A stretch of 64,000 nucleotides of DNA from an uncultured Thiotrichaceae bacterium (GCA_964531165.1 CAZHEA010000007.1:2956-66955); one strand, 5' to 3'. Positions 3,152 to 41,767 are shown, counted from the stretch's first letter. Notes: generated by a model from the letters alone, not told the origin. Translations and numbers: made by a program.

Positions 3152-3730
3152 ATGAACGTGAAAAAACTATGGACTACCCAGCCCTCAGAACAGGATCAGT
3201 TTGAAGCGCTAATTCAGCCGCATCTTAAACAACTTTATAAACTGGCCTATCGCTTTAGCGGCCAACAGCATGATGCAGAAGACCTGGTGCAGGACATTCT
3301 GCTCAAACTCTACCCGCGACTCAAAGAAATGCAGACCATTGAAAAATTGGGTCCGTGGCTGGCCCGTGTGCTGTACCGTCACTTTGTTGATAAATTACGC
3401 AGTAAGCAGCGTGCACCATTACAGCTGGTGGGTGATGATGACGAGAAAATTCTCGAAGACTATAGCGAGCAGTCGCCAGGGCCGGCGGGCACTAAAGAGC
3501 GGAACCTGTTACAGCAGCAATTACAGGAATCTCTGGGTCAGTTGAATGAAGATCAGCGTGTTCTGGTCATTCTGCATGACGTAGAAGGCTACACTCTGCA
3601 GGAAATTCACACAATGTATGACGTATCAATTGGTACGTTGAAATCCCGTTTAAACCGTGCCCGTAGTCGCTTAAGAGAATCATTAAAAAAAATGGAACCT
3701 TTTGAGGCCGGGAGTCGTGTAAATGAATAA
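3152..3730 (+). CDS. ECF (group IV) sigma-70 family sigma factor
   Basis: It has a sigma-2 region (DAEDLVQDILLKLY) and a sigma-4 HTH (LQEIHTMYDVSIGTLKSRLNRAR). It is ~190 aa. Its stop overlaps the downstream anti-sigma start by 8 nt. Confidence 0.75.
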   Translation: MNVKKLWTTQPSEQDQFEALIQPHLKQLYKLAYRFSGQQHDAEDLVQDILLKLYPRLKEMQTIEKLGPWLARVLYRHFVDKLRSKQRAPLQLVGDDDEKILEDYSEQSPGPAGTKERNLLQQQLQESLGQLNEDQRVLVILHDVEGYTLQEIHTMYDVSIGTLKSRLNRARSRLRESLKKMEPFEAGSRVNE

Positions 3731-4415
3731 CAGGATAAGAATTATGAACTGCACAGACATAGACACATTACTTGATGACTACCTTGATCACGATTTGCTG
3801 GTACATGAGCAAAGATCGGTCGAGCTGCATATCAACAACTGCACAGCTTGTCAGCAAAGTTTGAAAGAAGCACAGGCGGTACGTGAAGCATTAGCATCAT
3901 TGCCGCTGGTTGAAGCCTCAGACAACTTTGAAAGCCGGGTGTTTGCTGAAGTGCGTAAACAACATCAGGGTGGTCAGCATGACCGTCGATTTCTAAATGG
4001 TTTTGTTACGGCATTAGCCGCAAGTGTGTTTTTATGGGTAGCTGTACCAATGATTTTTGCACCGCAAGAGTCACTGTCAGGTAGCAATACCATCTCTGTA
4101 GCAATGAATGAAACTCGTCCTGTCAGATTGTTGTTTGAAGCGCCTGATGCAATTGAACAGGTAACGCTAAGTATAGAGTTACCTGCCAATGTTGAACTGA
4201 AAGGTTACCCCGGTCGCAGTCAGCTAAGCTGGAGCACCAGTCTGAAAAAAGGTCAGAACGTTTTGGCGTTGCCGATAAATGCAATAGAGGCGGGTAAGGG
4301 AGAACTAGTTGCCCACCTTAGCTATGGTGACAAAACCAAAACCTATCGATTAATTTTAAAAACTACAGATAACGGCGTGATGAGCTATCAGATTCAGCCA
4401 GTGACATCTGCTTAA
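3723..4415 (+). CDS. Membrane-spanning zinc-binding (ZAS-type) anti-sigma factor
   Basis: Translationally coupled to the ECF sigma. It has an N-terminal H-x3-C-x2-C motif (HINNCTAC). It has a single TM helix (FVTALAASVFLWVAVPMIFAP) followed by a ~110-aa periplasmic domain. An alternative start is ATG 3744. Confidence 0.6.
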   Translation: MNNRIRIMNCTDIDTLLDDYLDHDLLVHEQRSVELHINNCTACQQSLKEAQAVREALASLPLVEASDNFESRVFAEVRKQHQGGQHDRRFLNGFVTALAASVFLWVAVPMIFAPQESLSGSNTISVAMNETRPVRLLFEAPDAIEQVTLSIELPANVELKGYPGRSQLSWSTSLKKGQNVLALPINAIEAGKGELVAHLSYGDKTKTYRLILKTTDNGVMSYQIQPVTSA

Positions 4416-4434: not shown

Positions 4435-5010
4435 ATGAAAACATTAAGCAAAGCAATTATTTTAGGGCTGGGCATGACATTGCCTTTAGGCGCAATGGCC
4501 GCAGCTGACGACGTAACGATTCGTGTAATGGAGATGAATGAAGCTTCTTCAGATCATGTTATGGAAAATATTGAACTGCCGGAAATGGCTCGTGAGCGTG
4601 CAAAAGAAAGTGCTCAGCATGGTTTAGAGCATGCGAATGACAAGGCGGCAGAGCATAAAGAAAAAATGGATCATGCTGATGAAGATGAAGAGCATGCCAT
4701 GAATAAAGATCGTGACATGGATAAAGAGCATGACATGGATCAGGATCGAGAAATGGACCAGGATCGTGACATGGAACGCGAAATGGAAGAAGATCGTGAA
4801 ATGGAACGTGAGCATGAAGGCGATCGTGATGATAGCGATGTGAATGATCGTATTAATGAAGAGCGTGAAGAGCATGAGCGTCGTGGTGAAGATGGTCCGA
4901 ATAGCCCGGATGATATTGAGCGACCTGAGTTCGACGCTCCGGAAATAGACGTTCCAGAGTTCGATTCGTCTGTTCAGGAAAGACCTGAGCTACGTGGTGG
5001 ACAACGTTAA
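4435..5010 (+). CDS. Secreted, highly acidic His/Met/Asp/Glu-rich repeat protein (function unknown; possible metal-binding)
   Basis: Sec signal peptide (MKTLSKAIILGLGMTLPLGAMAAADD). It is a low-complexity D/E/H/M/R-rich protein. It contains roughly seven tandem DRDME-like pentapeptide units encoded by a 15-nt DNA repeat (4708-4830). A strong terminator follows. Confidence 0.55.
   Translation: MKTLSKAIILGLGMTLPLGAMAAADDVTIRVMEMNEASSDHVMENIELPEMARERAKESAQHGLEHANDKAAEHKEKMDHADEDEEHAMNKDRDMDKEHDMDQDREMDQDRDMEREMEEDREMEREHEGDRDDSDVNDRINEEREEHERRGEDGPNSPDDIERPEFDAPEIDVPEFDSSVQERPELRGGQR
4708..4830 (+). repeat. 15-nt tandem repeat array (about 7-8 units) inside the acidic-protein CDS
   Basis: Units of the form GATCGTGACATGGAA / GATCAGGATCGAGAAATGGAC encode DRDME/DQDREMD pentapeptides. 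Confidence 0.8.
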
Positions 5011-5093: not shown

Positions 5094-5146
5094 AGTGTAT
5101 GGAAAATCATTTACAGGTAGATGGTATGTTTGGATGTAAAAAGAAT

Positions 5147-6481
5147 ATGAGTCGCTGGTTGTTAATCGCATTACTGTTTGTTTCTATGCAACTAATTGCG
5201 GCGGAAGAAGAAAGTTCAGTGAACAAAAATTTTGCACAGGGTATTAGTTATTTTAAGCAGGCTAATTATAGCAGTGCAGTTAAAAAGTTCGAGTTGGCAC
5301 GTCAACAGGGAAATCGCAGTACCGCACTCTATTACAATCTGGGAAGTGCGTATTATAAATTAGAGCAGTATAAAAATGCCGAACGTTATTTTAGTGCGTT
5401 GATTAAGCAACCGAAGATGAAATCTCTGGCCGAGTACAATCTGGGTCTGATCGCGGTTAAACAAAAAGATTCGCTAACCGCTAAAAAATATTTCCAGTCG
5501 ATTGTAAAAACCAGCCGGGATAAAAAAGTGGTATATCTGGCCAGTCAGCAGTTATCATCATTAGATAGCAAAAGTCTGCCACAAAAAAAATTATCATCAA
5601 AAAAAACCAGGGGTTCAGTCTATCTGAGTGGTAGTCTGGGCTATGACAGTAATATTAATTTCGCGCCTGTAGATATAGGTTCGGAAGAGTCAGGTATGTT
5701 TTTTGATGCGTTGTTATCGGCAGACTATTTGTTTTCCGGTAAGTCTACTGATGGCTGGAGTGTTGAGGGTCTGTTATATACGATTCGTTACGAAGATACA
5801 GGTAACCCTTTAATTCCAAAGGGTGCATTTGATCAGGACGAATATGGTGTCAGTTTGAAGAAAACTCAGAAATTAGCCGGTTGGAATACTCATTTCAAAC
5901 TGGGTTTAGATAAGCTAACCTATGGGGCGAGAGACTATCAGTCAATTCTTAAGCTGGAAGCCCGAGGCCGGCATAGACTTTCAAACACAGACAGAGTTTA
6001 CTTGCGTTATCGCTATGAAGATATTAGTAGCGACGATGTGGTGTTTGATTATACCGAAGGCTGGCGTCAGAAAATCAGAGGCGAGTTTCGTCGTTATCAT
6101 AAAAATAATTATTTTCAGCTTTATTATGAACTGGAGTTGAATGACAGAAATGATCTGGTCAGAGTTGATGCCGTTGATGGCAGTATTAGTGAGTTTAGTT
6201 ATTCACCTACCCGTCATACATTACGTGGAAAATATAATTTAAAATTAAATACCAAATGGGATCTAACCGCCGATCTTGCCTATCGCAAGAGTGATTATCC
6301 TTCAACCAGTACTCAAAATCGTAATGATGATCGTTGGAAAGCTATAGCTTCTGCAAATTATAAACTTGATAAAACAATGAAGTTAAAGCTTAAGCTGGAG
6401 TATACGGACAATGCATCATCAGATGATTTATATGTTTATGACCGGCAGGTTGTTGCGGTTAGTCTGAATAAATTGTTTTAA
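5147..6481 (+). CDS. Outer-membrane protein: N-terminal TPR domain + C-terminal beta-barrel (Slam/DUF560, type 11 secretion-like; tentative)
   Basis: Signal peptide MSRWLLIALLFVSMQLIAA. There are about three TPR units (AVKKFELARQQGN...YYNLGSAYYKLEQYKNAERYF...). A K-rich linker follows. The last ~285 aa show an alternating amphipathic beta pattern and end in the aromatic residue F (..VSLNKLF). Its size (~445 aa mature) and architecture match Slam proteins. The ORF-track start 5099 leaves no room after the terminator, so 5147 or 5126 is preferred. Confidence 0.5.
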   Translation: MSRWLLIALLFVSMQLIAAEEESSVNKNFAQGISYFKQANYSSAVKKFELARQQGNRSTALYYNLGSAYYKLEQYKNAERYFSALIKQPKMKSLAEYNLGLIAVKQKDSLTAKKYFQSIVKTSRDKKVVYLASQQLSSLDSKSLPQKKLSSKKTRGSVYLSGSLGYDSNINFAPVDIGSEESGMFFDALLSADYLFSGKSTDGWSVEGLLYTIRYEDTGNPLIPKGAFDQDEYGVSLKKTQKLAGWNTHFKLGLDKLTYGARDYQSILKLEARGRHRLSNTDRVYLRYRYEDISSDDVVFDYTEGWRQKIRGEFRRYHKNNYFQLYYELELNDRNDLVRVDAVDGSISEFSYSPTRHTLRGKYNLKLNTKWDLTADLAYRKSDYPSTSTQNRNDDRWKAIASANYKLDKTMKLKLKLEYTDNASSDDLYVYDRQVVAVSLNKLF

Positions 6482-7528: not shown

Positions 7529-8428
7529 ATGGCAGATCGACGACTAAAAGTATTTCATACGGTAGCCAAGCTACTGAACTTTACCAAGGCAGCGGATGCT
7601 CTACATATGACTCAACCGGCGGTGACATTTCAAATTCGTCAGTTAGAAGAATATTTTAACACCCGTTTATTTGACCGTACACATAACCGTGTCAGCCTCA
7701 CTGAAGCGGGCCTGCGAGTGTATAGTTTCTCTGGCCGTATCTTTGAACTCTATGATGAGATGGAGCATTCAATACGTGAGATGACCGGTGATGTTAGTGG
7801 TGTCGTTACCCTTGGGGCGAGTACCACCATTGCTGAATATATGTTGCCGTTTTTGCTGGGTGACTTTAAAGCTAAAAACCCGGAAGTAAATATTCGCCTG
7901 AAAGTATCTAATACCGATGGTATTGTTTCGATGGTGGAAAACAATATTATTGATCTGGGTATAGTTGAAGCATCGGTCAGTAATAAAAATTTACAGGTTG
8001 ATGTCTGTCGTATGGATCAGCTGGTCGCGATTATGCCACCTGATCATGCGTTGGCAAATAATGAAACCATAGCTGCGCAGGAAATTGTATCGCACCCTTT
8101 TATCTGTCGCGAAGAGGGTTCGGGCACCCGTGAAGTGATTGCCGAGTATTTACTGGAAACCGGCATTAAAGACGAGCCTAATATCTGTCTTGAGTTAGGT
8201 AGCCCGGAATCAATTAAGAGTGCTGTAGAAGCTGGAATGGGTATTTCTATCATGTCCCTGTCAACGGTGCAGAAAGAAATTAAGCTTAATACCTTAAAGG
8301 TAATTCCACTGGACCCACCACTGGAGCGTCCATTCTCATTTGTTCATCAGCGCCATAAGTTTAAAGTGCGGGCAATGGAAGAGTTACTTGAATTTGCCAA
8401 GCAGTATTGCCAGTCACACCCGAAATAG
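7529..8428 (+). CDS. LysR-family transcriptional regulator
   Basis: N-terminal HTH (LKVFHTVAKLLNFTKAADALHMTQPAVTFQIRQLE) plus a LysR substrate-binding domain. It is divergent from the DUF4124 gene. Confidence 0.8.
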   Translation: MADRRLKVFHTVAKLLNFTKAADALHMTQPAVTFQIRQLEEYFNTRLFDRTHNRVSLTEAGLRVYSFSGRIFELYDEMEHSIREMTGDVSGVVTLGASTTIAEYMLPFLLGDFKAKNPEVNIRLKVSNTDGIVSMVENNIIDLGIVEASVSNKNLQVDVCRMDQLVAIMPPDHALANNETIAAQEIVSHPFICREEGSGTREVIAEYLLETGIKDEPNICLELGSPESIKSAVEAGMGISIMSLSTVQKEIKLNTLKVIPLDPPLERPFSFVHQRHKFKVRAMEELLEFAKQYCQSHPK

Positions 8429-10240: not shown

Positions 10241-11005
10241 TTACAATCGTTTTTTTATTCGCTTTTTTTGTTGTTTCAAGCGTCGCTGCCACCACATCCA
10301 TAAACCACTCAAGCTTAAAAATATCATCAGTATAGCAACACCATCCATAACGTATACACCGAACTTTCCAAAGATGCGACCGCTGTGAATGTCCAGAATA
10401 ATTCGCTCTAGTGGTAAACCTTCGCCCCGGTATTGTTTAAGTAAATCCTGTTTTAAGTTTTCACCTGGCTGAATGTGTGGTGACCATGTCATCTGTATGG
10501 GGGCAATGGCCTGCCAGTTAATAATATCTTCATCAGCCTGCCACATACTCTGATCCATCATTTTTATAATGGCTTTGTTTTCGAGCATGCCGACGTGTTC
10601 TATTTCAGTGTTTTGTGCCAGCGGGTAACGATCAATTAGTTCACCGTCGCGGCTGAGCAAAATAACATCGCGGGACAATACCAGTATGATAATTTCACCT
10701 GCATTGGTCACGCCTCTAATCTGTTGTTTATCGTTGAGAAGTTTTTTATTGTCGAAATAAATTTGTTGATCGAGCTGGGTGAAAATATGTTTTTGCGTTC
10801 GATAACTGATAGCTGCTTGTTGCGGGTTAATTTCATACAGGCTAAGCACCAGCGCATTATTGATTTTAGTTTTGTTGAGTTGTAAACCGTCAGTGTGATT
10901 AAGCATAATGCCGGTCACGGCCAGTAATATAATAAACAGTACCAGTAGCAGGCCAAATCGCCTGTGCCATAAAAACGCCGGAAATTTCTTTTTATGGCGG
11001 GTCAT
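10241..11005 (-). CDS. PepSY-associated TM helix protein
   Basis: N-terminal WHRRFGLLLVLFIIL (PepSY-TM HRW-G motif) and a C-terminal second TM with DIHSGRIFGKFGVYVMDGVAILMIF. It overlaps the upstream FMN-binding gene by 4 nt. Confidence 0.55.
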   Translation of the reverse strand: MTRHKKKFPAFLWHRRFGLLLVLFIILLAVTGIMLNHTDGLQLNKTKINNALVLSLYEINPQQAAISYRTQKHIFTQLDQQIYFDNKKLLNDKQQIRGVTNAGEIIILVLSRDVILLSRDGELIDRYPLAQNTEIEHVGMLENKAIIKMMDQSMWQADEDIINWQAIAPIQMTWSPHIQPGENLKQDLLKQYRGEGLPLERIILDIHSGRIFGKFGVYVMDGVAILMIFLSLSGLWMWWQRRLKQQKKRIKKRL

Positions 11006-11520
11006 TGTTTGGCACGCAGTTGTTGGTCGAGGTAAAGTGCAATGCGGGAAATTTTGGTAATGGCTCGTACTGAAAGTGTAGCACCTGAAATCCCATCTAT
11101 GTGGCGATCCAGCTGTAAGTCATTATTTATGCTTGCCTGTAGAAATTGTTTGGTGAAAAAGTCATGACGTATTTCATCGCCGCGGCTTTCACGAAACGCC
11201 AGAACTTTTATGCTTTCAAGTTTGCCGTGGTTGATAACAACGCCAATGGTAATGGGTTTTTCTTTACCAATTTCATCTAATATCCAGGCGGTTTTTTGCT
11301 GCTGTTTCCAGTAGCGTAAACGCAGTTTTCTAAAATCATGTGCGAGAATTTGTTTAATATTTTCACGGTCAGTTTTGGTGAGCCAGAGTGCTTTGGCTTT
11401 AGGTTGATTCTCTGCAAAGGCTAACTGGATAAATGCATCAGGCTGAAGATACTGACCACCAGCGTAAGCCGGTAGTTGTAAGCAGCACAGAACAATAAAA
11501 ATAAAGCGTGTAAAAATCAT
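11002..11520 (-). CDS. Exported FMN-binding domain protein (ApbE-flavinylated type)
   Basis: Signal peptide. It has the GISGATLS motif (the Thr in S-G-A-T is the covalent FMN attachment site in NqrC/RnfG-type FMN_bind domains). Confidence 0.6.
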   Translation of the reverse strand: MIFTRFIFIVLCCLQLPAYAGGQYLQPDAFIQLAFAENQPKAKALWLTKTDRENIKQILAHDFRKLRLRYWKQQQKTAWILDEIGKEKPITIGVVINHGKLESIKVLAFRESRGDEIRHDFFTKQFLQASINNDLQLDRHIDGISGATLSVRAITKISRIALYLDQQLRAKQ

Positions 11521-11599
11521 GGGGGCGCATCATACCAGTTGTTGGCGAAGTGAGAAACCTACGTGAGCATAATGCATTCGCAGGTTTCTCAGTCGGCAT

Positions 11600-12850
11600 T
11601 TAGAACTGGTAGCCGACTCCCAGCATAAAGCCATCGTCATCCGTGCCTGCCTTATCCAGTAACTGATAGTTTGCTTTCACAACCACATCTTCATGGGGCC
11701 AGTAGCTAAAGCCAAAATCGGTCTGATTGCGCTGTGTATCATTCGCGCTGTTAACCATATTATCCCAGCTGCTCTGGCGTGCATATATACCCCACTGAGA
11801 CGTAAATTTGTAAGAGGGCTCTACATACCAGCCGCTTTGCTCGTCAGAGCCTAGGCTTTTCGGTCCGTTACCGCTTAAGTCCCAGCTCGCATACAGAGCG
11901 CGTAATGCAAACGGTCCGGTTAGCCAAACCGCATGAGTCTCCAACAGGCTCGCACTTCCCGCAGCGGCATCGGTGCTTTGAGTAATATCACGTTGGTACT
12001 GCATAGTCGCGCCCAGTTCTACGCCTGCTGCACCCGTCCATTTCAGGCGTGCTGTGTAGGCAGGGTCCTGCATTGGCGCTTTGCTTACACTGGTACGACC
12101 ACCACGAACAGTATAGTCATCGCCAACCTGTAAGCCGGAATGCATGGCCAGATCATAGCTAAATGCGTCGCCAAAACGGCCGCTGAAGCTCACGCCACCT
12201 TCACGCCAGGTGGTGGGAATAATGTACTTTTCTACATTATTACGCTCAACACCGTAAAAAGTGGGTGGCTCGTGGGTTTCGTTAACCATTCCAACAGGGA
12301 CCAGAATAATACCTGCACGGACTGAGTTATTGTCACTTACATCAAATTCAAGAAAAGCCTGTTCCATGGAAACTTCGCCAGAGCCTTCACCTTCCGTTTT
12401 AACTTGTGAGTGCTCAATTTCCAGTTCTGACCAGAAGCGAATTTTGTCACTGAACTCATGACCCATGAATAAAATAAAGCGATGCAAGTTAATTATTTTG
12501 GTGCTGTCAGTGTTGATGTAATGCAGTTCACCATAACCACCAATCGTAGTATTGCCTTTAGAGCCATGAGTGCCAAAGGTTTTATCGCGTGCTGTTTCTG
12601 CGCTGCTATGACTGTGTGAAGATTGTTCACCTGACGTATTTTGAGTGGGAGATGTATTTATATTACCTGATTCAAGCATATCTGCTGTGGCTTCCAGACG
12701 CTCTAAAATAATTTTGTTTTCTGCTTTGAGGGCATCAAGCTGTAGTTGAAGACTGTCTGATTCTGCTGAAATGGCATTCGTTGATGCCAGTAATAGTGCG
12801 CTGGCAATGGCACTTTTTAAGGTAGATGATACAAATTTACGGCTTTTCAT
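11600..12850 (-). CDS. Outer-membrane porin with N-terminal coiled-coil (DcaP-like family; tentative)
   Basis: Signal peptide. A ~45-aa coiled-coil (LQLQLDALKAENKIILERLEA) is followed by a beta-barrel ending in ..GVGYQF. Confidence 0.5.
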   Translation of the reverse strand: MKSRKFVSSTLKSAIASALLLASTNAISAESDSLQLQLDALKAENKIILERLEATADMLESGNINTSPTQNTSGEQSSHSHSSAETARDKTFGTHGSKGNTTIGGYGELHYINTDSTKIINLHRFILFMGHEFSDKIRFWSELEIEHSQVKTEGEGSGEVSMEQAFLEFDVSDNNSVRAGIILVPVGMVNETHEPPTFYGVERNNVEKYIIPTTWREGGVSFSGRFGDAFSYDLAMHSGLQVGDDYTVRGGRTSVSKAPMQDPAYTARLKWTGAAGVELGATMQYQRDITQSTDAAAGSASLLETHAVWLTGPFALRALYASWDLSGNGPKSLGSDEQSGWYVEPSYKFTSQWGIYARQSSWDNMVNSANDTQRNQTDFGFSYWPHEDVVVKANYQLLDKAGTDDDGFMLGVGYQF

Positions 12851-13080
12851 GGGGAAATAGCTCCACTCTATATTATTGGGTGAGCCCAGTTATCAGCAAA
12901 TCAATGTTGTGCTGATGGCCTGTTCTCTAAATCTGAGTGGAGTATACATGATGATGATGCGAATGCAAATGATTCTCATATAGAAACACAGTAAAGTTGA
13001 TAGAGATTAATACTTTTGTTTATTATGCAGAGGTAAAGAGCTGGGCGCTTAGCATGTAAAGAAGGCATGGACTGTTGATG

Positions 13081-13128: not shown

Positions 13129-13602
13129 TCATTCTGGTTTAACGTGTTTAGCTGCCGCCAGTACTTCTTCAACATGTCCCTTAACGCGTACTCCGAGCCA
13201 CTGTTCTCTGAGTACACCGTTAGCATCGATTAAAAAAGTGCTGCGGACTATGCCCATATACTCACGGCCATAATTTTTCTTTAGCTGGATAACGCCAAAT
13301 AAATTGCAGACGCTTTCATCCGCGTCGGAAAGTAAATCAAATGGAAACTCATGTTTACTTTTAAAGTTAGTGTGAACGCGCACTGAGTCGCGGGACACAC
13401 CAACAACAACGGTTTTAGCGCGTTTAAATTTCGCATAGTGATCGCGAAAGTCCTGGCCTTCCTGGGTGCAACCCGGCGTGTTGTCTTTCGGGTAAAAATA
13501 AATAATGAGGTTTTTACCTTTAAAATCTTTCAGACAAAGTGTTTGTTCGCCCGTCGCCTGTGAACAGAAGGCGGGGACTTTTTTATTTAACGTTACAGGC
13601 AT
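13129..13602 (-). CDS. bcp: Thiol peroxidase Bcp (peroxiredoxin Q)
   Basis: IIYFYPKDNTPGCTQE active-site motif. Conserved bcp-gcvR neighbourhood. Confidence 0.85.
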   Translation of the reverse strand: MPVTLNKKVPAFCSQATGEQTLCLKDFKGKNLIIYFYPKDNTPGCTQEGQDFRDHYAKFKRAKTVVVGVSRDSVRVHTNFKSKHEFPFDLLSDADESVCNLFGVIQLKKNYGREYMGIVRSTFLIDANGVLREQWLGVRVKGHVEEVLAAAKHVKPE

Positions 13603-13632: not shown

Positions 13633-14160
13633 TTAATCAGCGGGTTTAAATTCCACGTCCATGCTGAGCTCATCGCAAAGCTCGCCAAAATCATTTTCCA
13701 GTTGTGTGATATCTAATTTATCTGGAATATCAACCCGCATATTTACACTAAACATCGGTGTACCTGTATGCGGTGCATGGTTACTTGCAGTATGCATATT
13801 GACAATATTAATGCTGTGTTGAGAAAAGTAACGTGCGAGTTTATGCACAATCCCCGGATTATCCATGCCTTCTACAGTAACCTGATAACTGAGGTGGTTG
13901 TCATTGTTGCTGCGTCTGGTAGTCGGCTTAATCAGCAAATTTAAATTCAGTGTTGCTGCCAATGAGTCTTTTTGCTGTTTGATTGAATCAATCGAAGACG
14001 CGCTACCGGTAACCAGCAGCATTACTACAAACTCACCGCCGAGTACGCTCATGCGACTGTCTTCGACATTTAAACTGGCATTAAGTAAAACTTCGGTGAG
14101 TTCATTAACAATACCCGGGCGGTCGTCCCCAATGGCGGTAATAACAAGTGACTGATTCAT
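13633..14160 (-). CDS. gcvR: Glycine cleavage system transcriptional repressor GcvR (tandem ACT domains)
   Basis: LVITAIGDDRPGIVNELT ACT motif with a second ACT repeat. It is divergent from dapA as in E. coli. Confidence 0.8.
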   Translation of the reverse strand: MNQSLVITAIGDDRPGIVNELTEVLLNASLNVEDSRMSVLGGEFVVMLLVTGSASSIDSIKQQKDSLAATLNLNLLIKPTTRRSNNDNHLSYQVTVEGMDNPGIVHKLARYFSQHSINIVNMHTASNHAPHTGTPMFSVNMRVDIPDKLDITQLENDFGELCDELSMDVEFKPAD

Positions 14161-14424: not shown

Positions 14425-14476
14425 AGAGCAAAAGCTTTAAGCTTTTATTTGCGTACTTCGCGTTCATTTGCGGATA
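14425..14476. repeat. Family C element, solo right end
   Basis: GCAAAAGC...TTTTATTTGCGTACTTCGCGTTCATTTGCGGATAA matches the right arm of family C. Confidence 0.5.
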
Positions 14477-14507
14477 ATAGATTTTGATTATTTATCTACC
14501 TGTATCT

Positions 14508-15707
14508 TTATCGGCCCCAGGCAGACCCTGCAGTAATATAAAACACTGTATCCTCCGGACCGCGGGCGATATCTATACCCATATCAAATCCGTAACGTCG
14601 TGCAACCTGGTAACGAAAGCCCAGCCCCTGCGTGACGCGAGTGCTAGCATCAGCAAATGAACCGGTGTTATTACTGGCGCGCCCGGCACCAATAAACCCA
14701 AGCAGACTCCAGCGTGAATCTACCAGCCAGGTTAGTTCAGTTTCAAGCACACCAATCAACTCACCCTGATAACGTCTTGCGGGAATGCCGCGAAGCGTTA
14801 TCGACGGCGTTGCAAAGGGCGGTAACAATTTATTACTGTTGGCATATTCGCTGTGCAGTCTTAAGCCTGCACGCCAGTGATTATTGAGTGACCAGTAATT
14901 CAAACCTTTGAAAGTCGTGAGTTCATATTCAATATCGCTGCCAAAACTTTCACGATACCAAAATTGTTCAATACCATATTGGTAGCCTTCAGTGGGGGAG
15001 AAAATATTATCACGGTTATCAAATTCTAAATTTAATCCCAGTGCTGAAGTGGTGATATTGCGAGACAGTAAGGCTTTTAATTCGTCTTCAAATTCCGGTG
15101 GTAGCGTGCCGTCTAAAGTGCCCGTAGAAGCCGGTGAGATTCGGGCGTTAATATAACGTTGTGCAACCCCCCAGAAAAAGTTGCTGGAAGCGAGCTTAAA
15201 TTTAAGTGTTTGAAAAAGTCCGGAAGCCTGAGTGTTAATTTCAACGGGATCGGCCAGGCTAATATCGCCAGTGCCGTAAAAATCTAAATTCACATCGCCA
15301 TAACCAGCACCACCTAAATAGCGAATACGGCCCTGTTTAAAAAATCCCATGTGCCCACCACCGGCAAACCAGGATTGATTACCCGTTGCTGCAGCGGCGG
15401 CAACCGATATGCTGGGCGGTAATAGGTGTCTGGCCGCGCCACTGTCGGCTTTTTTCATGGCCTTTAAGCGTTTGAGTTTCTCGTCTTCGGTTTCGTGAAA
15501 AAACAAACCCATCATGCCTAAACCGCCATCAACCGCCGGGTCGGTAATAATGATCGGTACGGGTAAAAAACCATAGGCGTTTTTTGACAGGTAATCTGAA
15601 GCATCGAAACGCCCGTCTAGCATATCAATAAATTGAGAGGCACTACTGCGACTGTATGCATTGGAGCTAAGCAGGCAAAGCATACTGAGAAAAATGCTGC
15701 TTTTCAT
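14508..15707 (-). CDS. Outer-membrane beta-barrel protein (Omp85/Bac_surface_Ag-like; tentative)
   Basis: Signal peptide. It has long alternating beta patterns, and LRGIPARRYQGE resembles the Omp85 loop-6 RG[FY] motif. No POTRA is evident. Low certainty. Confidence 0.4.
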   Translation of the reverse strand: MKSSIFLSMLCLLSSNAYSRSSASQFIDMLDGRFDASDYLSKNAYGFLPVPIIITDPAVDGGLGMMGLFFHETEDEKLKRLKAMKKADSGAARHLLPPSISVAAAAATGNQSWFAGGGHMGFFKQGRIRYLGGAGYGDVNLDFYGTGDISLADPVEINTQASGLFQTLKFKLASSNFFWGVAQRYINARISPASTGTLDGTLPPEFEDELKALLSRNITTSALGLNLEFDNRDNIFSPTEGYQYGIEQFWYRESFGSDIEYELTTFKGLNYWSLNNHWRAGLRLHSEYANSNKLLPPFATPSITLRGIPARRYQGELIGVLETELTWLVDSRWSLLGFIGAGRASNNTGSFADASTRVTQGLGFRYQVARRYGFDMGIDIARGPEDTVFYITAGSAWGR

Positions 15708-15732
15708 TGGTTAATACCCATCTGAATAGTGA

Positions 15733-17973
15733 TTAACGTCGTCTACCACCACCCGCTCTCGCCCGGTTAAATTGCTGACGGCGTTGTGCACCCTGCTGGC
15801 GCGACTGGTAACTGCGCTGTAATTGTTGTCGATTGTAGCCACTTCCGGCTTTATTTGCGGGGCGTTGCTGGGCGGGTTTCTGCCAGTCGTTATTGTTTCT
15901 GTTCTGCCAGCCACTATTGGTTTTACGATGCAGATTGCCCTGTTTGTCGGCATACACATTATTTTTACGGTTGGTTGCCGGGCGTGCTTTTGCCAGTTTG
16001 TTGGCAGGTGTAATGCGTGCCGCGTTACGGCGATTTTTATATAAATTGCGTGATGCTTGAGCCTTTACGGGCTGAATTGAAGGACTTTTACCGGGTCGGT
16101 TAATGGGTCTGTATCCGGGTCTATATCCAGAGTAAACACCACGGCGATAACCGTGATAATAAGCATGTCGATAGCCATAATAATGATGAGGGCCCCACCA
16201 GCCACCACCGTACCAGCCGCCGTAACCAATACTAAAAGTGAACGGGCCACTGCTGTAACTCATGCCATAACCCCAGCCCATATAGGGGTTCCAGCGAGCG
16301 TAATAACCATAGGTTGCCGGGTAAGGGTAGTAGGCGTGCTGGTACCAGCCGGGATAGTAGTAACCGGTGCCATAAACAATGGTTGAGCCATAAACATAGG
16401 TGTTGGTATAACCGGGGGTGTAACCCACATAAACCACTTCCGGCTCAGCCTTGTATATTTTTACAAAGGTAATGTTATACATGGGAGAGTCGGCGGGGAT
16501 GGTGTAAATTTCATCGGGCACCGAGGTGGCAATGGTCCATTTGCCTTTGGGCGACGTGGCAGCAAACCACACCGCGTTATCCACTGCATAAAATAAATTT
16601 TGAGAAACCTTAATTACTGGGGTGGCGGTATTCACCGCATAACTTAAGGCGGTGCTGAGAATAGGCTGAAAAATCGGTTCGCCATCATACTCAACGGTTA
16701 AGGAGGCGAGGCTACGATTAATGGCTGCAGTTTGTGGGATTTGAGCATTGAGTACCGCTTCTTTGGCAATCTCAGTGCCGGGTACGGCATACAGCACCGT
16801 ACCCATGTGTGATTTCTCCGGGATTTTTGCAAATGCGGCGGGTAGTGATTTTCCCGCGACATATTTCCATGGTCCCTGCATTTTATCACTGTTGTACCAG
16901 CGCCCCGCGAGTAGTACATAGTATTTTTGATGACTAATGTCGAGCAGCACATCACTTTCAGTGTTGCTCATGTAAAGTAAATCTTTGACGTCATCAACCG
17001 GTTTAAACTCAGCTTTGCCGGTTGCAGAAATTAGCTCTGCGGGTTTGGTTCTAATAATAATTTTGGGTGGTGGTGCGTCTTTTTTGGTTGCGGCTGTTGT
17101 GTCGGCTTTCTTTTTATCAGACGATTTTTTACTGGCTTGATCTTCATCGGCCGATTTTTCAGCAATATCCTTTTCGCTCGGCTTGGGCTCCAAATCGGTA
17201 ATCGCACGGGGCACTTCTTTTGTAATGCTCCAGTCAGCATTTAAATCACTGGTGGTGTACCAGACTTTTTTATCCGCATTTAAATAATAAAGTTTTTCTG
17301 TGGGACTGAAAATAAGTGTGTACGGGGTGTTAACGACGCGTTTTAAACTGCGTTGCGGTATATCCTGCAGCTTAGGCTCGCCATCAATGGTAATTAAAAT
17401 AGCGGGCTCTTCTATAAAAATAATTTCCGGTGGCGCAGTGTTAATTTTTTTCGAGGAGTTGTGTAGCTGGTCCTCCAGCTTTAAGGTCGCGGTTAGTTGC
17501 GACATAGAAATTTCCATATTCCATTTTGGAATTTCCCGTTCCATTAGTTTTTCAAGCTTGCTGAGATTCTGGTCACCGGCATCGGGGATGCGGACATTGG
17601 TTATTTTGACATCAGCAATGGTGGCGGAGCGCTCAGCCCGGTTGACTTGTAAACGGGCATCAAACCAGATGGCACCGAATACGGGTTTGTCAGCATCGTT
17701 GAGTTCAACAGAAATTGCAGCACGGGCTTTTAACTGGTCGCCCTTTAATGATTCAGGCTGTGGCTGGTAGATGATGACCACGCCCTTACTGGTTTTGATT
17801 TCCTGAGGCCATTGCTTGGTTGCAGGGGCGATTTTTTCAGAGGATGTTTTTTCTAGCTTGTCTTTTTTCGCGGTATTTTTTTTATCAGTACCTTCATCAA
17901 GCGCATAAGCATGTGTACTGCTTAAAAGAATAATTGTGCAGAAAAAAAATCGACTGATGATATTGTATGACAT
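15733..17973 (-). CDS. Large secreted protein with a Tyr/Gly/Trp-rich low-complexity domain and a Q/R/N/K-rich basic C-terminal tail (function unknown)
   Basis: Signal peptide (..SSTHAYALDEG). Residues ~505-635 are extremely Y/G/W/P-rich (YYYPGWYQHAYYPYPATYGYYARW...GYGGWYGGGWWGPHHYYGYRHAYYHGYRRGVYSGYRPGYRP). The final ~110 aa are Q/R/N/K-rich and end GGGRRR. No known domain was recognised. Confidence 0.5.
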   Translation of the reverse strand: MSYNIISRFFFCTIILLSSTHAYALDEGTDKKNTAKKDKLEKTSSEKIAPATKQWPQEIKTSKGVVIIYQPQPESLKGDQLKARAAISVELNDADKPVFGAIWFDARLQVNRAERSATIADVKITNVRIPDAGDQNLSKLEKLMEREIPKWNMEISMSQLTATLKLEDQLHNSSKKINTAPPEIIFIEEPAILITIDGEPKLQDIPQRSLKRVVNTPYTLIFSPTEKLYYLNADKKVWYTTSDLNADWSITKEVPRAITDLEPKPSEKDIAEKSADEDQASKKSSDKKKADTTAATKKDAPPPKIIIRTKPAELISATGKAEFKPVDDVKDLLYMSNTESDVLLDISHQKYYVLLAGRWYNSDKMQGPWKYVAGKSLPAAFAKIPEKSHMGTVLYAVPGTEIAKEAVLNAQIPQTAAINRSLASLTVEYDGEPIFQPILSTALSYAVNTATPVIKVSQNLFYAVDNAVWFAATSPKGKWTIATSVPDEIYTIPADSPMYNITFVKIYKAEPEVVYVGYTPGYTNTYVYGSTIVYGTGYYYPGWYQHAYYPYPATYGYYARWNPYMGWGYGMSYSSGPFTFSIGYGGWYGGGWWGPHHYYGYRHAYYHGYRRGVYSGYRPGYRPINRPGKSPSIQPVKAQASRNLYKNRRNAARITPANKLAKARPATNRKNNVYADKQGNLHRKTNSGWQNRNNNDWQKPAQQRPANKAGSGYNRQQLQRSYQSRQQGAQRRQQFNRARAGGGRRR

Positions 17974-18042
17974 TGAAGAGCCTTAAATAATAGAAGAATA
18001 ATGAATTTGAAAACATTTTCGAATTCATTATTTCAAGAGAGT

Positions 18043-18729
18043 TTAAAACATTAAGCCGACATCAAAGCGAAAATTAGTAAAGCCAGAAGAGCTAGAGGCC
18101 TGACTATAATCAATCCATTTTTTGCCTGCGGTAAAGCGTAAGAATACATTGTCTTTTACGTCAAATCGAAACCCGGCACTGGCGCCGTAGGTGAATTCGG
18201 TTGAAGTGAGGGTTGGCTGAAATGTGTCGCAGATATAGCCCCACCACGGGTCATACCAGCAGCCGGTTTGTGGCGGGCCGGTTGGGATATTAGTGTCGAT
18301 ATAAGTCAGACCCGCAGAAACACCAACGAAGGGCGTAAAGCGTTTTTTCATGAAATTATAAATGCCGGTAAATACCATGCTATTGGAGTACAGGTTGCCA
18401 TAGACTGTTTCTTTATTACCGTTTTCCAGCACCCGCGTGCCCGAATAGTTAACATCGCCCCAGTTAAGGTCAAAATCTAATGCCCAGTGTTCATCGAAAT
18501 TGTAGCCAACACCAAAACCGAAAGCATAATCCTCATTAATGGTTGCATCAGAGCCACCATCAAAATTAATTTGCTTTGATTCGATATACTTGGTCTGAAA
18601 TGAAATCTCCCAGCGATCTTTACGGTCGCTTAATGACATAATGTCCGCACTGAATGCGACACCAGAAAAAGCCATTAAAAACAGATAAAGGATTGGGCGT
18701 TGTAATGATGAGTTTAAAAAATGTTTCAT
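18043..18729 (-). CDS. Small outer-membrane beta-barrel protein (OmpW/OmpA-barrel-like)
   Basis: Signal peptide and a ~200-aa alternating beta pattern ending ..DVGLMF (C-terminal Phe). Confidence 0.5.
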   Translation of the reverse strand: MKHFLNSSLQRPILYLFLMAFSGVAFSADIMSLSDRKDRWEISFQTKYIESKQINFDGGSDATINEDYAFGFGVGYNFDEHWALDFDLNWGDVNYSGTRVLENGNKETVYGNLYSNSMVFTGIYNFMKKRFTPFVGVSAGLTYIDTNIPTGPPQTGCWYDPWWGYICDTFQPTLTSTEFTYGASAGFRFDVKDNVFLRFTAGKKWIDYSQASSSSGFTNFRFDVGLMF

Positions 18730-18925
18730 TGGTGTAAAACCTGCGATGTGTCAGTGTTAATAAAAAGCGCATATATCGCCCATCATATCAGACGTCAGTA
18801 TACCTTAAATTTACAGCGGGTGGACTTTACAGGTGTTTAAATTTATTATTGAAATTCAACTGCTTTTTATTCTATACCCATAAAAAGCGTCGGATTATGA
18901 TTGATAAAAACAACAGGCTTTTTAT

Positions 18926-19498
18926 ATGTTGAATACAGTAGCAAAAATATTATTTATACTCTCCTCAGCATTGTTTGTGTTCTCGTGCAGTAATGTTAAA
19001 AGCACTTATGACTATGATCGCGATGTTGATTTTGCAGCAGTTAAAACCTATCAGTGGGACAGGCAGCCATCTAAGGCGTTTACTCAGGCAAACCCGCTAA
19101 TTGCAAAACGAATTGTGAAAGCGATTGAAGCTAACCTTAAAAGAAAAGGCCTGATAGAAGCTGAAGCGGCGGATATTAAAATCAGCTATCAGGTGAGTTT
19201 TGAGAAAAAACTCAGTAGCAGTAATGTTACAGGTGGTATTGGCATGAGTGTGGGGCGTTATAACCGCGGCTCAATAGGTATTAGCAGCGGTAATAGTATA
19301 CGTGAGACCACCGAAGGCACGTTGATGATCGATATGGTTTCGGCTAATCGGCAGAATTTAATCTGGCGCTCAATAACGACCAAGCCGGTATCGGCTAGAG
19401 ATGCGACACCGCAGGAGTCTGAGAAGCGTATTGGTCAGCTTATTTACAGGGTGTTTGATAATTTTCCGCCGGAACAGAAGCCAGCAGGAAGTGACTAA
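18926..19498 (+). CDS. Lipoprotein (DUF4136-like; tentative)
   Basis: Lipobox LFVFSCS. 190 aa. It is divergent from the OM-barrel cluster. Confidence 0.45.
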   Translation: MLNTVAKILFILSSALFVFSCSNVKSTYDYDRDVDFAAVKTYQWDRQPSKAFTQANPLIAKRIVKAIEANLKRKGLIEAEAADIKISYQVSFEKKLSSSNVTGGIGMSVGRYNRGSIGISSGNSIRETTEGTLMIDMVSANRQNLIWRSITTKPVSARDATPQESEKRIGQLIYRVFDNFPPEQKPAGSD

Positions 19499-19505
19499 TT
19501 TTTAT

Positions 19506-19541
19506 TCCCTTTCTTAGTAAAAGAGAGGTTTTGGGAGATTC
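19506..19541. repeat. REP-like family B element
   Basis: TCCCTTTCTTAGTAAAAGAGAGGTTTTGGGAGATTCA. Confidence 0.55.
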
Positions 19542-19607
19542 ATTCATTACAAGGCTTTTAGTCTCTTTGTGATTATTCCTATGCAATATGCACGGCATTA
19601 GAACTCA

Positions 19608-19642
19608 AATCCCTCTCATCAGCCCTTTTATTAAGGGGGAAG
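19608..19642. repeat. REP-like family B element (inverted orientation)
   Basis: AAATCCCTCTCATCAGCCCTTTTATTAAGGGGGAAG is the reverse-complement form of the family consensus. Confidence 0.5.
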
Positions 19643-19798
19643 TCTGGTTAATGCTGATTACGCTCTTTCAAGTCAGTTTAATGCGCGGTTTATCTTGTAA
19701 ATAAGGCCCCTACAAAGTACTATTTCCGGCCTGATTTAACCAGCCTGCCGTCTTATTGGCCGGCTGGTTTCAACTCTAATATATTAAAGGCAATAAAC

Positions 19799-20674
19799 AT
19801 GTTTCGTGGCAGTATGGTGGCGCTGGTAACACCCATGCACCCAGATGGGTCAGTCGACTTTGATAGCCTGAGTCAGCTGATTGAATTTCATATAGAAAAT
19901 GGCACCAGTGCGATTGTGTCGATGGGCACCACCGGTGAATCAGCAACCTTAGATGAAAAAGAACATTGCGAGGTTATTCGGCGTACGGTTGAAATGGTAA
20001 ATCAGCGGATACCGGTTATTGCCGGTACCGGTGCAAATTCCACCACTGAAGCCATTACTTTGACCCGATGTGCGATGCAGGCCGGTGCTGATGCCTGTCT
20101 GCTGGTGACACCTTATTATAATAAGCCGACTCAGGAAGGCCTGTATCTGCATCACAAGCTAATTGCGGAAACCGTTCCTGTACCGCAAATTCTTTATAAT
20201 GTACCCGGACGTACCGCCTGCGATATGCTGCCGGAAACCGTGGCACGTTTGTCAAAAGTCTCTAATATTATTGGCATTAAAGAAGCCACCGGTGATTTAT
20301 CACGGCTCACGCAAATTCGTGAATTATGCGGTGATAACTTTGATGTTTTTTCCGGTGATGACGATACCGGCACAGAGTTTATGCTGCAGGGTGGTAATGG
20401 GGTGATATCGGTTACTAATAACGTTGCGCCGAAAGCGATGGCTGAAATGTGTGCCGCGGCGCTGGCTGGTGATCGTGAGAAAGCGTTGGAACTTAATCAG
20501 CCTTTAACCGGTCTGCATAATGACCTGTTTGTTGAGGCTAACCCCATTCCGGTGAAATGGGCGCTAACCGAAATGGGGAAAATGCCCGCGGGCATTCGTT
20601 TACCACTCACCCCATTATCTGAGCAATATCATGAAACACTGCGCGCGGCGATGCGTCAGGCGGGTGTGCTGTAA
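19799..20674 (+). CDS. dapA: 4-hydroxy-tetrahydrodipicolinate synthase
   Basis: [13 protein letters not shown]...[20 protein letters not shown] closely parallels E. coli DapA. Confidence 0.9.
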
Positions 20675-20677
20675 ATT

Positions 20678-21853
20678 ATGTCTATGAAATTATTATCTAA
20701 AATATTATCCATCAAATATTTGTCGGCTTTACCTGTGGCGATGTTGTTATCGGTTGTACTGGCAGGTTGCAGTTCAGATGGCGATGAGCGTCCCGGCTAC
20801 ATGGATGCTGCTACCGTTAAAAGTCTGGAAATTCCGCCTAAGCTGAGTATCCCTGATACTCAGGGCGCACTGCGTCTGCCAGAGCCTTCTCAGCAAACAG
20901 CTCAACAGTCCGCTTCCGCTATGCGCAATACCCCCATAGCACCGACCTTTAGTGGATTTGATCTAAAACAGGATTCAGGTCTCTACTGGCTGGAAATTGA
21001 TATGCCGGTAGCGGATGTATGGAAAACATTACCGGATTTTTTAGCCTCTGAAGGTATTGAAGTTGACCGAGTTGAAAAACTGTTGGGTTTTCTAGATACA
21101 GCCTGGATGAGTGAATATAAAGTCACTTACAATTCAGAAGCCTCGGGCGGCTGGTTCAGCAGCTTTTCGCCGGATTATAAAGATCGTTTTAGAATTAGAG
21201 TCGAGGCGATTGATGGTACAAATAAAACCCGCTTGTTTGTTAATCACCGTGGCTTACAAATTAGCGTTGCCAATGATGTAACCGCCTGGACACAACGTGA
21301 TTCCGAGCCATTTTTAGAGCGCGAAGTTCTTTATCGTTATGTGTTGTTTAGTGGTATTAATAAAACCGCTGCTACCGAATTGCTTGCCTCGTATCACGGC
21401 TATCAACCCCGGGTTGATAAAATTACTGATACCTCAGACAGCTTTTCTGTAAAAGGCGAAGCTGATACTATTTGGATGCGATTACAAATTGCAATGGATC
21501 GTTTAGGTGTTGATATCGTGAAAAGCGACAAGGCCTCACGTAGCATGCAGGTGTTAGTCGGTAGCATGCACGTGGAAGAGCAACCGCCGGAAGATGATAG
21601 TGGCTGGTTTGGTGGTTTGTTTAGCGGCAAAAAAGTTGTGGTTGATGAGGGTGATGATTATGAAGATGATGATGCGGGCAATGACAGCCGTAAAGTTATT
21701 AAAGTGGCACCGCAAGATCGTATAACTCTGCAGTTGCAGCAAATTGTGGGTGAAGGTTCGAGTGAAATTAAACTCAGTAATATTGATGCCAGCCCGTTAA
21801 CAGGTGACCTTGTCTGGCAGTTTCGTGATGCCGTATTAGCTCAGCTTAAATAA
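20678..21853 (+). CDS. bamC: Outer membrane protein assembly factor BamC (NlpB) lipoprotein
   Basis: Lipobox LAGCSS. It is immediately downstream of dapA as in E. coli. Size and architecture are consistent. Confidence 0.7.
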   Translation: MSMKLLSKILSIKYLSALPVAMLLSVVLAGCSSDGDERPGYMDAATVKSLEIPPKLSIPDTQGALRLPEPSQQTAQQSASAMRNTPIAPTFSGFDLKQDSGLYWLEIDMPVADVWKTLPDFLASEGIEVDRVEKLLGFLDTAWMSEYKVTYNSEASGGWFSSFSPDYKDRFRIRVEAIDGTNKTRLFVNHRGLQISVANDVTAWTQRDSEPFLEREVLYRYVLFSGINKTAATELLASYHGYQPRVDKITDTSDSFSVKGEADTIWMRLQIAMDRLGVDIVKSDKASRSMQVLVGSMHVEEQPPEDDSGWFGGLFSGKKVVVDEGDDYEDDDAGNDSRKVIKVAPQDRITLQLQQIVGEGSSEIKLSNIDASPLTGDLVWQFRDAVLAQLK

Positions 21854-24330: not shown

Positions 24331-24406
24331 GGGGGCGGAGTCAAATTTGATATTAGGGGTCCATCAAATTCTGAAGCAAAGCTAGATCAAAATTGACTCC
24401 GACCCC
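24331..24406. repeat. MITE-like family A core element (inverted repeat GGGGNCGGAGTCAAATTT ... AAATTGACTCCGACCCC)
   Basis: 18-bp terminal inverted repeats read directly. Same core as the copies at 41454-41530 and 41639-41717. Confidence 0.7.
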
Positions 24407-34220: not shown

Positions 34221-34341
34221 GTTGTTCGCAAATGAGCGCGAATCAACGTTAATAAAAGCAAAAGCATTAACTGCAAATATACTCGTGAGCTGCGGGTTCA
34301 AAAAATATAAAATTTGCGTGTTTTGCGTTCATTTGCGGACA
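34221..34341. repeat. Family C MITE-like element (~120 bp)
   Basis: Left arm GTTGTTCGCAAATGAGCGCGAAT, internal AATAAAAGCAAAAGCA and right arm TTGCGTGTTTTGCGTTCATTTGCGGACAA. The arms are inverted repeats. Confidence 0.6.
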
Positions 34342-34353
34342 ATATGCTTTTGT

Positions 34354-38945: not shown

Positions 38946-39070
38946 TTGTCCGCGAATGAACGCAAATGAACGCGAATAAAAGCAAAAGCAGATGAATTTA
39001 TATAGAGGTGTGGTGTGCATTAGGCACACAAACCAAAACTTTGCGTTTATTTGCGTTCATTCGCGGACAA
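38946..39070. repeat. Family C MITE-like element (~125 bp)
   Basis: Left arm TTGTCCGCGAATGAACGCAAATGAACGCGAAT, internal AATAAAAGCAAAAGCA and right arm TTGCGTTTATTTGCGTTCATTCGCGGACAA. It lies between ffh and rpsP. Confidence 0.65.
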
Positions 39071-39208
39071 CCTGCATCTTAAAAAAACCTAAATTAGGGC
39101 TTGCTACTATCCCTAAAAACCACTAAAATCCCGCTTTTCCCGAGACCCGAATTACTATTTCGGCTCTTTGAGTGGAACACAGATTAACTAATTTAGAGAT
39201 TGATACTA

Positions 39209-41356: not shown

Positions 41357-41545
41357 GGCGTTAGTTTTAGCTGACGATATAATATGTGATGCGCAGCGAG
41401 CAGTGGACGGGGTATGACCGGGGTTGATTTCTAATTTCCGGGGTTAATTTCCGGGGTCGGAGTCAAATTTTATATTATAGAGTGAAGTATCCGTTCATCA
41501 TTGCGCGGTATAAAATTTGACTCTGACCCCTAACTATCGAAATAA
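41357..41545. mobile_element. MITE-like family A element, copy 1 (has the left outer TIR and the inner IR but lacks the right outer TIR)
   Basis: It starts with GGCGTTAGTTTTAGCTGACGA and contains the GATGCGCAGCGAGCAGT box. The inner inverted repeat is CCGGGGTCGGAGTCAAATTTTATA...TATAAAATTTGACTCTGACCCC. Confidence 0.6.
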
Positions 41546-41553
41546 AGTGTGCA

Positions 41554-41767
41554 GGCGTTAGCTTTAGCTGACGAGAAATCATGCATGCGCAGCGAGCAGT
41601 ATTTCTGGGTGCGGTGTCAGATTTTCGGGGTTATTTCCGGGGTCGGAGTCAAATTTTATATTATAGAGTTGAAGTATCCGTTCTTCATTGCGCGGTATAA
41701 AATTTGACTCCGACCCCGAATAATACCGACCCCTAATAATAAAAGGTCGTCAGCTAAAGCTAACGCC
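41554..41767. mobile_element. MITE-like family A element, copy 2 (complete: 21-bp perfect outer TIRs nested around the inner inverted repeat)
   Basis: Left TIR GGCGTTAGCTTTAGCTGACGA (41554-41574) and right TIR TCGTCAGCTAAAGCTAACGCC (41747-41767) are perfect reverse complements. The inner IR GGGGTCGGAGTCAAATTTTATA...TATAAAATTTGACTCCGACCCC is in tandem with copy 1 (~200-bp unit). Confidence 0.7.

Follow-up and report, generated by a model that had tools for sequence, protein, structure and literature searches.

We analysed a 64,000-nucleotide stretch of DNA from an uncultured Thiotrichaceae bacterium (GCA_964531165.1 CAZHEA010000007.1:2956-66955), hereafter the window, whose positions are counted from its start, and focused on the genes located between gcvR and dapA. 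The 5.6 kb of DNA in this region is a lineage-conserved cluster of four envelope genes, shared by a clade of marine/vent Gammaproteobacteria. Its central gene encodes a protein of 746 amino acids (aa), named here the big protein, which sequence comparison places in a very large and so far unnamed exported protein family with a single architecture and a distant relationship to Escherichia coli YacH. The cluster also encodes a 399-aa Omp85-like barrel, a 228-aa small barrel and a 190-aa DUF4136 lipoprotein. The two barrels are optional companions of the big protein and not its dedicated exporters, and the evidence against such a dedication is strong. A preliminary description of the window had proposed that the region is an accessory insertion carrying an undescribed surface or secretion system; this was not supported by the analysis, and the cluster should not be taken as the discovery of a new secretion system.

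Three of the four genes are co-oriented on the minus strand. The small barrel gene (18043-18729) comes first, the big gene (15733-17973) follows after 69 bp, and the Omp85-like gene (14508-15707) after a further 25 bp; the DUF4136 lipoprotein gene (18926-19498) is located on the plus strand and is divergent from the trio. The four open reading frames (ORFs), their lengths and both gaps were found exactly where the preliminary description had placed them. In the window, 5,638 bp lie between the gcvR start (14160) and the dapA start (19799), compared with 145 bp between the two coding regions in E. coli K-12, and the claim of extra DNA relative to E. coli was thus confirmed.

The same cluster is present at the same dapA|gcvR position in six related contigs (L086, L087, L100, L101, L102 and L104), giving seven genomes with the window included. 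The conserved order is dapA|DUF4136|(small barrel)|big|(Omp85-like)|gcvR, and the gcvR flank can be observed in all six contigs. Identity across the syntenic contigs is 92-94% for DapA and only 66-75% for the big protein. The GC content and the GC content at third codon positions (GC3) of the four genes (0.42-0.46) lie within the range of the flanking genes and are therefore native. In the more distant relatives L090 and L103 (60-68% identity), the big gene is located at other genomic positions. The nearest named relatives in the homologue searches were uncultured Gammaproteobacteria with Thiohalomonadales and Ectothiorhodospiraceae labels, and a hydrothermal vent metagenome. Given the shared position in six contigs and the native base composition, a recent accessory insertion can be rejected within the lineage; recent horizontal transfer was likewise rejected on grounds of composition and synteny. 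The comparison of the locus in relatives had been named beforehand as the refuting test of an accessory insertion, and it revealed the same genes at the same position, contrary to that proposal.

Proteins of the cluster and of its flanks were compared with Pfam and NCBIfam models, and the big protein also with PDB sequences. No match to any of the three was found for the big protein, either alone or as a profile, in agreement with the earlier statement that the central protein fits no named family or system. Its family is nevertheless very large. Word-indexed searches returned >2,908 and >5,015 homologues (both lower bounds), and an exhaustive scan at E<=1e-30 yielded 1,994 clusters at 50% identity, of which the 150 best-scoring are nearly all near-full-length (~650-1,000 aa). 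Members were identified in 481 GTDB species of at least eight phyla, including Gammaproteobacteria, Desulfobacterota, Gemmatimonadota, Acidobacteriota, Bacteroidota, Verrucomicrobiota, Campylobacterota and others, with Pseudoalteromonas, Algoriphagus, Chitinophaga, Flavihumibacter and Desulfosarcina among the cultured genera; sediment, vent and soil organisms account for many of the members. Homologues carry the source labels "carbohydrate-binding family V/XII", "fibroin heavy chain" and "DUF3300", none of which is backed by a match to a profile hidden Markov model (HMM). The term "carbohydrate-binding V/XII" refers in the literature to the chitin-binding CBM5/12, which is unrelated to this family.

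The big protein begins with a signal peptide read from the sequence (residues 1-24, …THAYA/LD; 17902..17973, minus strand as for all segments of this gene), and the alignment of its homologues shows a conserved hydrophobic segment at the N-terminus with AxA after it, indicating Sec export. Residues 54-176 (domain 1; 17446..17814) are predicted to form a curved beta-sheet packed on helices, similar to that of YceB (DUF1439) and the TULIP superfamily (BPI/LBP, SMP, OrfX/P47, Takeout). Two independent methods returned YceB as the top single-domain match, followed by other TULIP proteins, with modest scores and 4-8% identity. YceB differs from the big protein in being a small single-domain lipoprotein, and it has no sequence similarity to domain 1. 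Domain 1 is followed by three beta repeats identified with hhalign: R1 (residues 178-262; 17188..17442), R2 (residues 301-380; 16834..17073) and R3 (residues 414-490; 16504..16734). Profile comparison gave probabilities of 98.7% (E 2e-16) for R1 against R2 and 98.3% for R1 against R3, with controls against domain 1 below 2%, and these units of ~75 aa constitute a new beta repeat.

The repeats lead into an aromatic "PEVVYVGY…TIVYGTG…YYP" module (residues 500-584; 16222..16476), which overlaps a Y/G/W-rich tract (residues 521-625; 16099..16413) consisting of 27% Y and 21% G. A basic low-complexity linker connects the tract to an "NNVYADxxGNxHRKTxxGWQxR" beta motif that was recognised in the homologue alignment (residues 669-700; 15874..15969) and predicted by AlphaFold2 (AF2) with a predicted local distance difference test (pLDDT) score of ~92. 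The protein ends in a Q/R-rich tail (residues 701-746; 15736..15873; 24% Q, 24% R, isoelectric point (pI) 12), whose helix, predicted at residues 713-739, drops in pLDDT from 89 to 53 along its length. Residue counts bore out the composition reported at first, namely the Y/G/W-rich tract and the basic tail ending GGGRRR. In total, conserved globular domains make up ~70% of the protein, and ~470 of their residues precede the aromatic tract.

The description of this tract as low-complexity proved misleading. In an alignment of 240 homologues comprising two phylum-level sets, mean column conservation was 0.66 in the tract compared with 0.54-0.65 in the folded domains, and 28 columns of the tract were >=90% conserved. 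The tract is thus conserved position by position in the manner of the folded domains, which argues that it is not low-complexity filler; moreover, it is present as a single copy, without a tandem amyloid repeat. AF2 predicts it as beta-hairpins of low confidence. As the pLDDT of the tract is low (40-63) despite the use of 131 sequences, its structure may depend on a partner, on a membrane or on self-association.

A relationship between the aromatic module and DUF3300 (PF11737; E. coli YacH) was detected by profile-profile comparison. Using hhalign, residues 500-584 were aligned with YacH 231-298, the C-terminal part of DUF3300, with a probability of 97.2% (E 3.5e-11, 68 columns); the PF11737 model covers YacH 75-333. 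Single-sequence searches with YacH reached only E values of about 1, and significance was obtained only at the level of profile against profile. Both families have a signal peptide and a "P[DE]VVY[VI]..Y.PT[VI]VYG…YPP" aromatic segment, followed by a Gly-rich stretch, N/R/Q-rich low complexity and a G/R C-terminus. The N/R/Q-rich low complexity can be observed in the DUF3300 proteins of E. coli, Cupriavidus, Paraburkholderia, Sinorhizobium, Bosea and Rhizobium, and a G/R-run C-terminus (e.g. "…GGGRGGRR") in all of them except E. coli YacH. The two families differ at the N-terminus, where DUF3300 has an "APIALYPD" helical region that accounts for about two thirds of the Pfam model and has no aligned region in the big protein (hhalign), whereas the big protein has the TULIP-like domain and the three beta repeats. 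Moreover, no PF11737 match at E<=1 was found for the big protein of the window, for 33 relatives or for 7 Bacteroidota relatives, one of which is named DUF3300 at NCBI. They also differ in gene context: DUF2950 follows DUF3300 in four of the six DUF3300 loci examined, and no DUF2950 partner gene is present at the window locus. The big protein is not itself a DUF2950 relative (hhalign probability 0.9%). The big protein is a member of an existing but undescribed family that is related only in part to a known Pfam DUF; the way in which a TULIP-like domain and three new repeats are joined here to a DUF3300-C-like module is likewise undescribed. The functional data that we found for YacH consist of its regulation by CpxR and of a deletion phenotype, a changed survival under the cationic peptide protamine (PMC9600279).

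Among the six DUF3300 loci, a Bosea sp. plasmid (L109, NZ_CP102773.1, 1122-4951) has the order OMP_b-brl gene, DUF3300, DUF2950. As the barrel gene is present only there (1/6 loci), an OMP_b-brl gene beside DUF3300 was rejected as a general pattern.

Of all neighbours of the big gene, the DUF4136 lipoprotein is found most consistently, and within the clade it is the only constant one. The preliminary identification of this divergent gene was correct: the protein matches PF13590 with 112 bits against a cut-off of 32.8 (E 3.6e-32), and a lipobox (…LFVFSC/SN) can be read from its sequence. A DUF4136 gene lies beside the big gene in all seven clade members and in L103, and within 4 kb of it in L090 and L098. 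Additionally, 9 of 80 GTDB loci have a DUF4136 gene no more than 8 kb away from the big gene; these loci represent at least four phyla and belong to Desulfobacterales, Gemmatimonadota, Bacteroidota and Thermoanaerobaculia.

The identity of the barrels was established with different degrees of certainty. The 399-aa protein had been described as Omp85-like, and this was upheld by a weak pass of the gathering score of Omp85 (PF01103; 26.6 bits, cut-off 24); its orthologue in the Chitinophagaceae metagenome-assembled genome L079 scores 35.2 bits, and the C-terminal end of the 399-aa protein matches the NCBIfam Omp85_fam model NF047779. The invariant "LRGIPxRRYQG" of its family can be compared with the (V/I/L)RG(Y/F) pattern of the Omp85 L6 loop. 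No Pfam match to a POTRA domain was found in this protein, and barrel-like conserved sequence begins at about residue 45 of 399. A profile of the family, which comprises at least 1,787 homologues of ~400 aa, matched no solved structure in the PDB. A "noNterm" class of Omp85 proteins has been described (Heinz and Lithgow 2014, PMC4104836), with paralogues in Leptospira (PMC11358297). The 399-aa protein resembles this class in its length of ~400 aa, its signal peptide and the lack of room for POTRA, and is assigned here to a putative POTRA-less "noNterm" barrel of the Omp85 superfamily, the assignment to this class depending on the weak HMM score (26.6 bits). The 228-aa protein matches PF13505 (OMP_b-brl, E 2e-11), with PagL, Opacity and Autotransporter matches below threshold. 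It had been called OmpW-like; it is a small barrel as proposed, and the attribution to OmpW was not retained, since no match to the OmpW model (PF03922) was found in the Pfam scan.

The linkage of both barrels to the big gene is facultative. Three of the seven clade members have no intact Omp85-like gene: it is absent in L086 and L100 and decayed in L101. The small barrel gene is kept beside the big gene in L086, L087, L100, L102 and L104, and also in L090 at a different locus, and is missing in one clade member (L101), where only a remnant is left. In L101, an intact big homologue is surrounded by remnants of both barrel genes, corresponding to small barrel residues 204-228 (~7800-7875) and to Omp85-like residues 18-64 in a frameshifted form (10396-10535), and these remnants are direct evidence of barrel gene decay. 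Outside the clade, an Omp85-like gene was found near the big gene in 3 and a small barrel gene in 2 of the 80 GTDB loci, and three Omp85-like homologues (58-64% identity) occur in unrelated contexts without the big protein. No neighbour of the big gene is shared across the family, as judged by all-against-all clustering (largest cluster 7/84 loci) and by a Pfam tally of 138 upstream neighbours. We conclude that the barrels are not dedicated exporters because they are lost or decayed beside an intact big gene and rare in the family loci, and because the Omp85-like family occurs independently.

A different pairing was observed in L091 (5666-8215), where a noNterm Omp85 homologue (64% identity) directly follows a DUF3943 gene and a 182-aa OMP_b-brl gene; the reading frames overlap or abut, and no member of the 746-aa family is present.

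We propose, with somewhat less than even confidence, that the cluster encodes an outer-membrane-associated envelope module, with the big protein and the DUF4136 lipoprotein as its core and the barrels as facultative components. According to this proposal, the big protein would cross the inner membrane by Sec and then remain associated with the outer membrane, where it would work together with the DUF4136 lipoprotein. The TULIP-like domain 1 would bind a lipid or another hydrophobic ligand, and the C-terminal half, being aromatic and basic, would attach to the membrane, lipopolysaccharide or another anionic envelope polymer. The module would serve envelope structure or homeostasis, in line with what has been suggested for YacH, rather than fibre export via dedicated barrels; where present, the barrels would be co-regulated envelope partners, not obligatory translocators.

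Several observations weigh against this proposal. The signal peptide of the big protein speaks only for the crossing of the inner membrane. Lipoproteins of the DUF4136 family are common, and their enrichment near the big gene was assessed relative to a rough expectation and not to a measured background. The DUF3300 match spans only 68 columns of a compositionally biased region, and the single-sequence comparison is weak (33%). AF2 gave no confident fold for residues 521-665, and an alignment of 131 sequences brought no gain. Finally, two Chitinophagaceae genomes again have all four families in one cluster, arranged as Omp85-like, DUF4136, OMP_b-brl_2, big in L079 and as OMP_b-brl_2, Omp85-like, big … DUF4136 in Flavihumibacter rivuli (L098), and L014 has an Omp85-like gene at a distance of 129 bp upstream of the big gene. 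The big proteins of L079 and L098 are only ~38% identical to that of the window, and the gene orders differ. This recurrence, together with L014, leaves room for a real functional role of the barrels, and the suggested link between the barrels and the big protein thus received some support from the Chitinophagaceae clusters, to be set against the facultative presence of the barrels in the clade.

An alternative that we consider unlikely, though it survives best among the others, is that the four genes have no functional link, being independent envelope genes that were gathered in a permissive intergenic site and co-inherited by synteny only. The lack of a family-wide conserved neighbour is consistent with such a scenario, as are the large size of all three neighbour families, which occur in other contexts as well, and the loss of single members while others stay. 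It is weakened by the fact that all clade members have retained DUF4136 next to the big gene, as have L103 and L090 at two other genomic positions, by its reappearance near the big gene in several phyla, and by the re-formation of the full four-family set in Chitinophagaceae with different gene orders.

The probability is lower still for a dedicated surface or secretion system, in which the aromatic C-terminal region would be an amyloid-like or adhesive fibre subunit exported by one or both barrels in the manner of curli or Fap. The window locus resembles curli (CsgA/B with CsgG/E/F), Fap (FapC with FapF) and two-partner secretion (TpsA/TpsB) in that the gene of a beta-rich exported protein adjoins outer-membrane barrel genes. 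The tight co-orientation with gaps of 69 and 25 bp is in keeping with such a system, and so are the clustering of the same families with the big gene in L079 and L098 despite their divergence and rearrangement, the position of the Omp85-like gene in L014, and the low-confidence beta-hairpins of the tract, which would be expected if the tract folded only on assembly. However, the Pfam matches of the four proteins include neither Curlin repeat, CsgG or CsgE/F nor the Haemagg_act (TPS) domain or POTRA of two-partner secretion, and the Omp85-like protein has no POTRA domain to receive a substrate. In contrast to the three known systems, the barrels of the window locus are facultative, and the exported protein is mostly globular, with a single-copy tract behind its conserved domains and no tandem amyloid repeats. 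The loss of the barrels in sister genomes with the big gene intact, as documented by the L101 remnants, their presence in only 2-3 of the 80 GTDB loci, and the occurrence of Omp85-like homologues without the big protein likewise argue against this alternative, and the curli/Fap-like dedicated export suggested at first is not supported.

Another suggestion, to which we give a similarly small chance, concerns the aromatic "VVY…VYG" module and the Gly/Arg C-terminus common to the big family and DUF3300/YacH. These could represent an unrecognised device for outer-membrane attachment or insertion, or for regulated self-assembly, for which DUF4136 and noNterm Omp85 proteins would act as facultative receptors or insertases. 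If true, this would provide noNterm Omp85 proteins with their first substrate class.

Equally doubtful is an extracellular or surface matrix protein whose Tyr/His/Arg-rich C-terminus binds polyanions or minerals (extracellular DNA, polyphosphate, metal oxides) and which is released via a general pathway, e.g. vesicles or a type II secretion system: the extreme Y/G/H/R composition, the pI 12 tail, the many members from sediment, vent and soil organisms and one "Extracellular" prediction for YacH (PMC9600279) are in its favour, but the signal peptide supports export to the periplasm only, the search of neighbours at 84 loci revealed no conserved link of the family to secretion genes, and the conserved TULIP-like and repeat domains would be left unexplained.

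The big family is of wider relevance, with ~2,000 clusters at 50% identity in at least 481 species of at least eight phyla of Gram-negative bacteria, and it has neither a Pfam or NCBIfam model nor a solved structure; the current annotations ("carbohydrate-binding family V/XII", "fibroin heavy chain") mislead. The architecture and the C-terminal link to DUF3300/YacH provide a common handle for two orphan families, and the YacH link suggests testable envelope phenotypes, e.g. sensitivity to cationic peptides. Moreover, the recurrent neighbourhood with DUF4136 and noNterm Omp85 offers a genetic entry point to three orphan families.

The intergenic DNA of the cluster was also analysed. The divergent region between the DUF4136 and small barrel genes (18730-18925) was compared by MAFFT alignment with its equivalents in L086, L087, L100, L102 and L104. 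Two blocks, AAAGTC[C/T]ACC and TGAGGTATACT (operon strand), are conserved across these six otherwise divergent relatives, and they may represent a putative promoter and a regulator site. A scan for promoters and terminators was uninformative, with counts at or close to the shuffle expectation, and no Rfam families were found in the window.

The preliminary description had also delimited the region by repeats. A search for repeat families in the window identified a lone arm of a dispersed family at 14447-14482, adjoining the Omp85-like gene on the gcvR side. Full inverted-repeat copies of this family are present at 34222-34347 and 38946-39075, with 31-nt inverted arms (TTGTCCGCGAATGAACGCAAATGAACGCGAA) and 63 nt between them. 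On the dapA side, a copy of a repetitive extragenic palindromic (REP)-like family (CCTCTCTTAGAAAAAGAGGGGCC…GGGGGAGATTTA) was found at 19507-19542; the five window copies of this family are at 13080, 19507, 24436, 32655 and 54024. Both of these elements are thus real. A second REP-like element had been proposed at 19608-19642, but under the search thresholds applied it did not come up as a member of a family. The role of the repeats as boundaries was not borne out either: as copies are present in many intergenic regions, they are ordinary intergenic elements and mark no insertion boundary. Elsewhere in the window, at 41441-41727, two tandem units of ~186 bp each contain an inverted repeat (GGGGTCGGAGTCAAATTTTATA / TATAAAATTTGACTCCGACCCC), an arm of which is also present at 24331-24355; these units resemble a miniature inverted-repeat transposable element (MITE) or a REP-type element.

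The flanks of the cluster are conserved. On the plus strand, dapA-bamC (19799..21853) was identified by TIGR00674 for dapA (E 6.6e-113) and by PF06804 for BamC. On the minus strand, gcvR (13633..14160) encodes an ACT-domain glycine cleavage repressor (Pfam ACT_6, NCBIfam PRK11589), and bcp (13129-13602) lies beyond it. Beside bcp, the window encodes at 11002-12850 a 416-aa phosphate-porin-like barrel (PF07396), which carries an unusual N-terminal extension rich in Ser, Thr and His, and next to it an FMN_bind protein that follows the barrel. This arrangement of a PF07396 barrel and FMN_bind is conserved beside bcp in L086 and L101, and in L086 (13735-16344) it is followed by a PepSY_TM gene.

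Additionally, a 191-aa protein with a signal peptide is encoded at 4435-5010 (plus strand), in which 18-nt periodic repeats (4684-4805) encode a D/E/R/M/H-rich tract "DRDMDKEHDMDQDREMDQDRDMEREMEEDREME". Its gene lies between a 230-aa ORF (3723-4415), anti-sigma-like by eye, and a 460-aa ORF (5099-6481), outer-membrane-barrel-like by eye, and the protein may be a putative metal-binding periplasmic protein.

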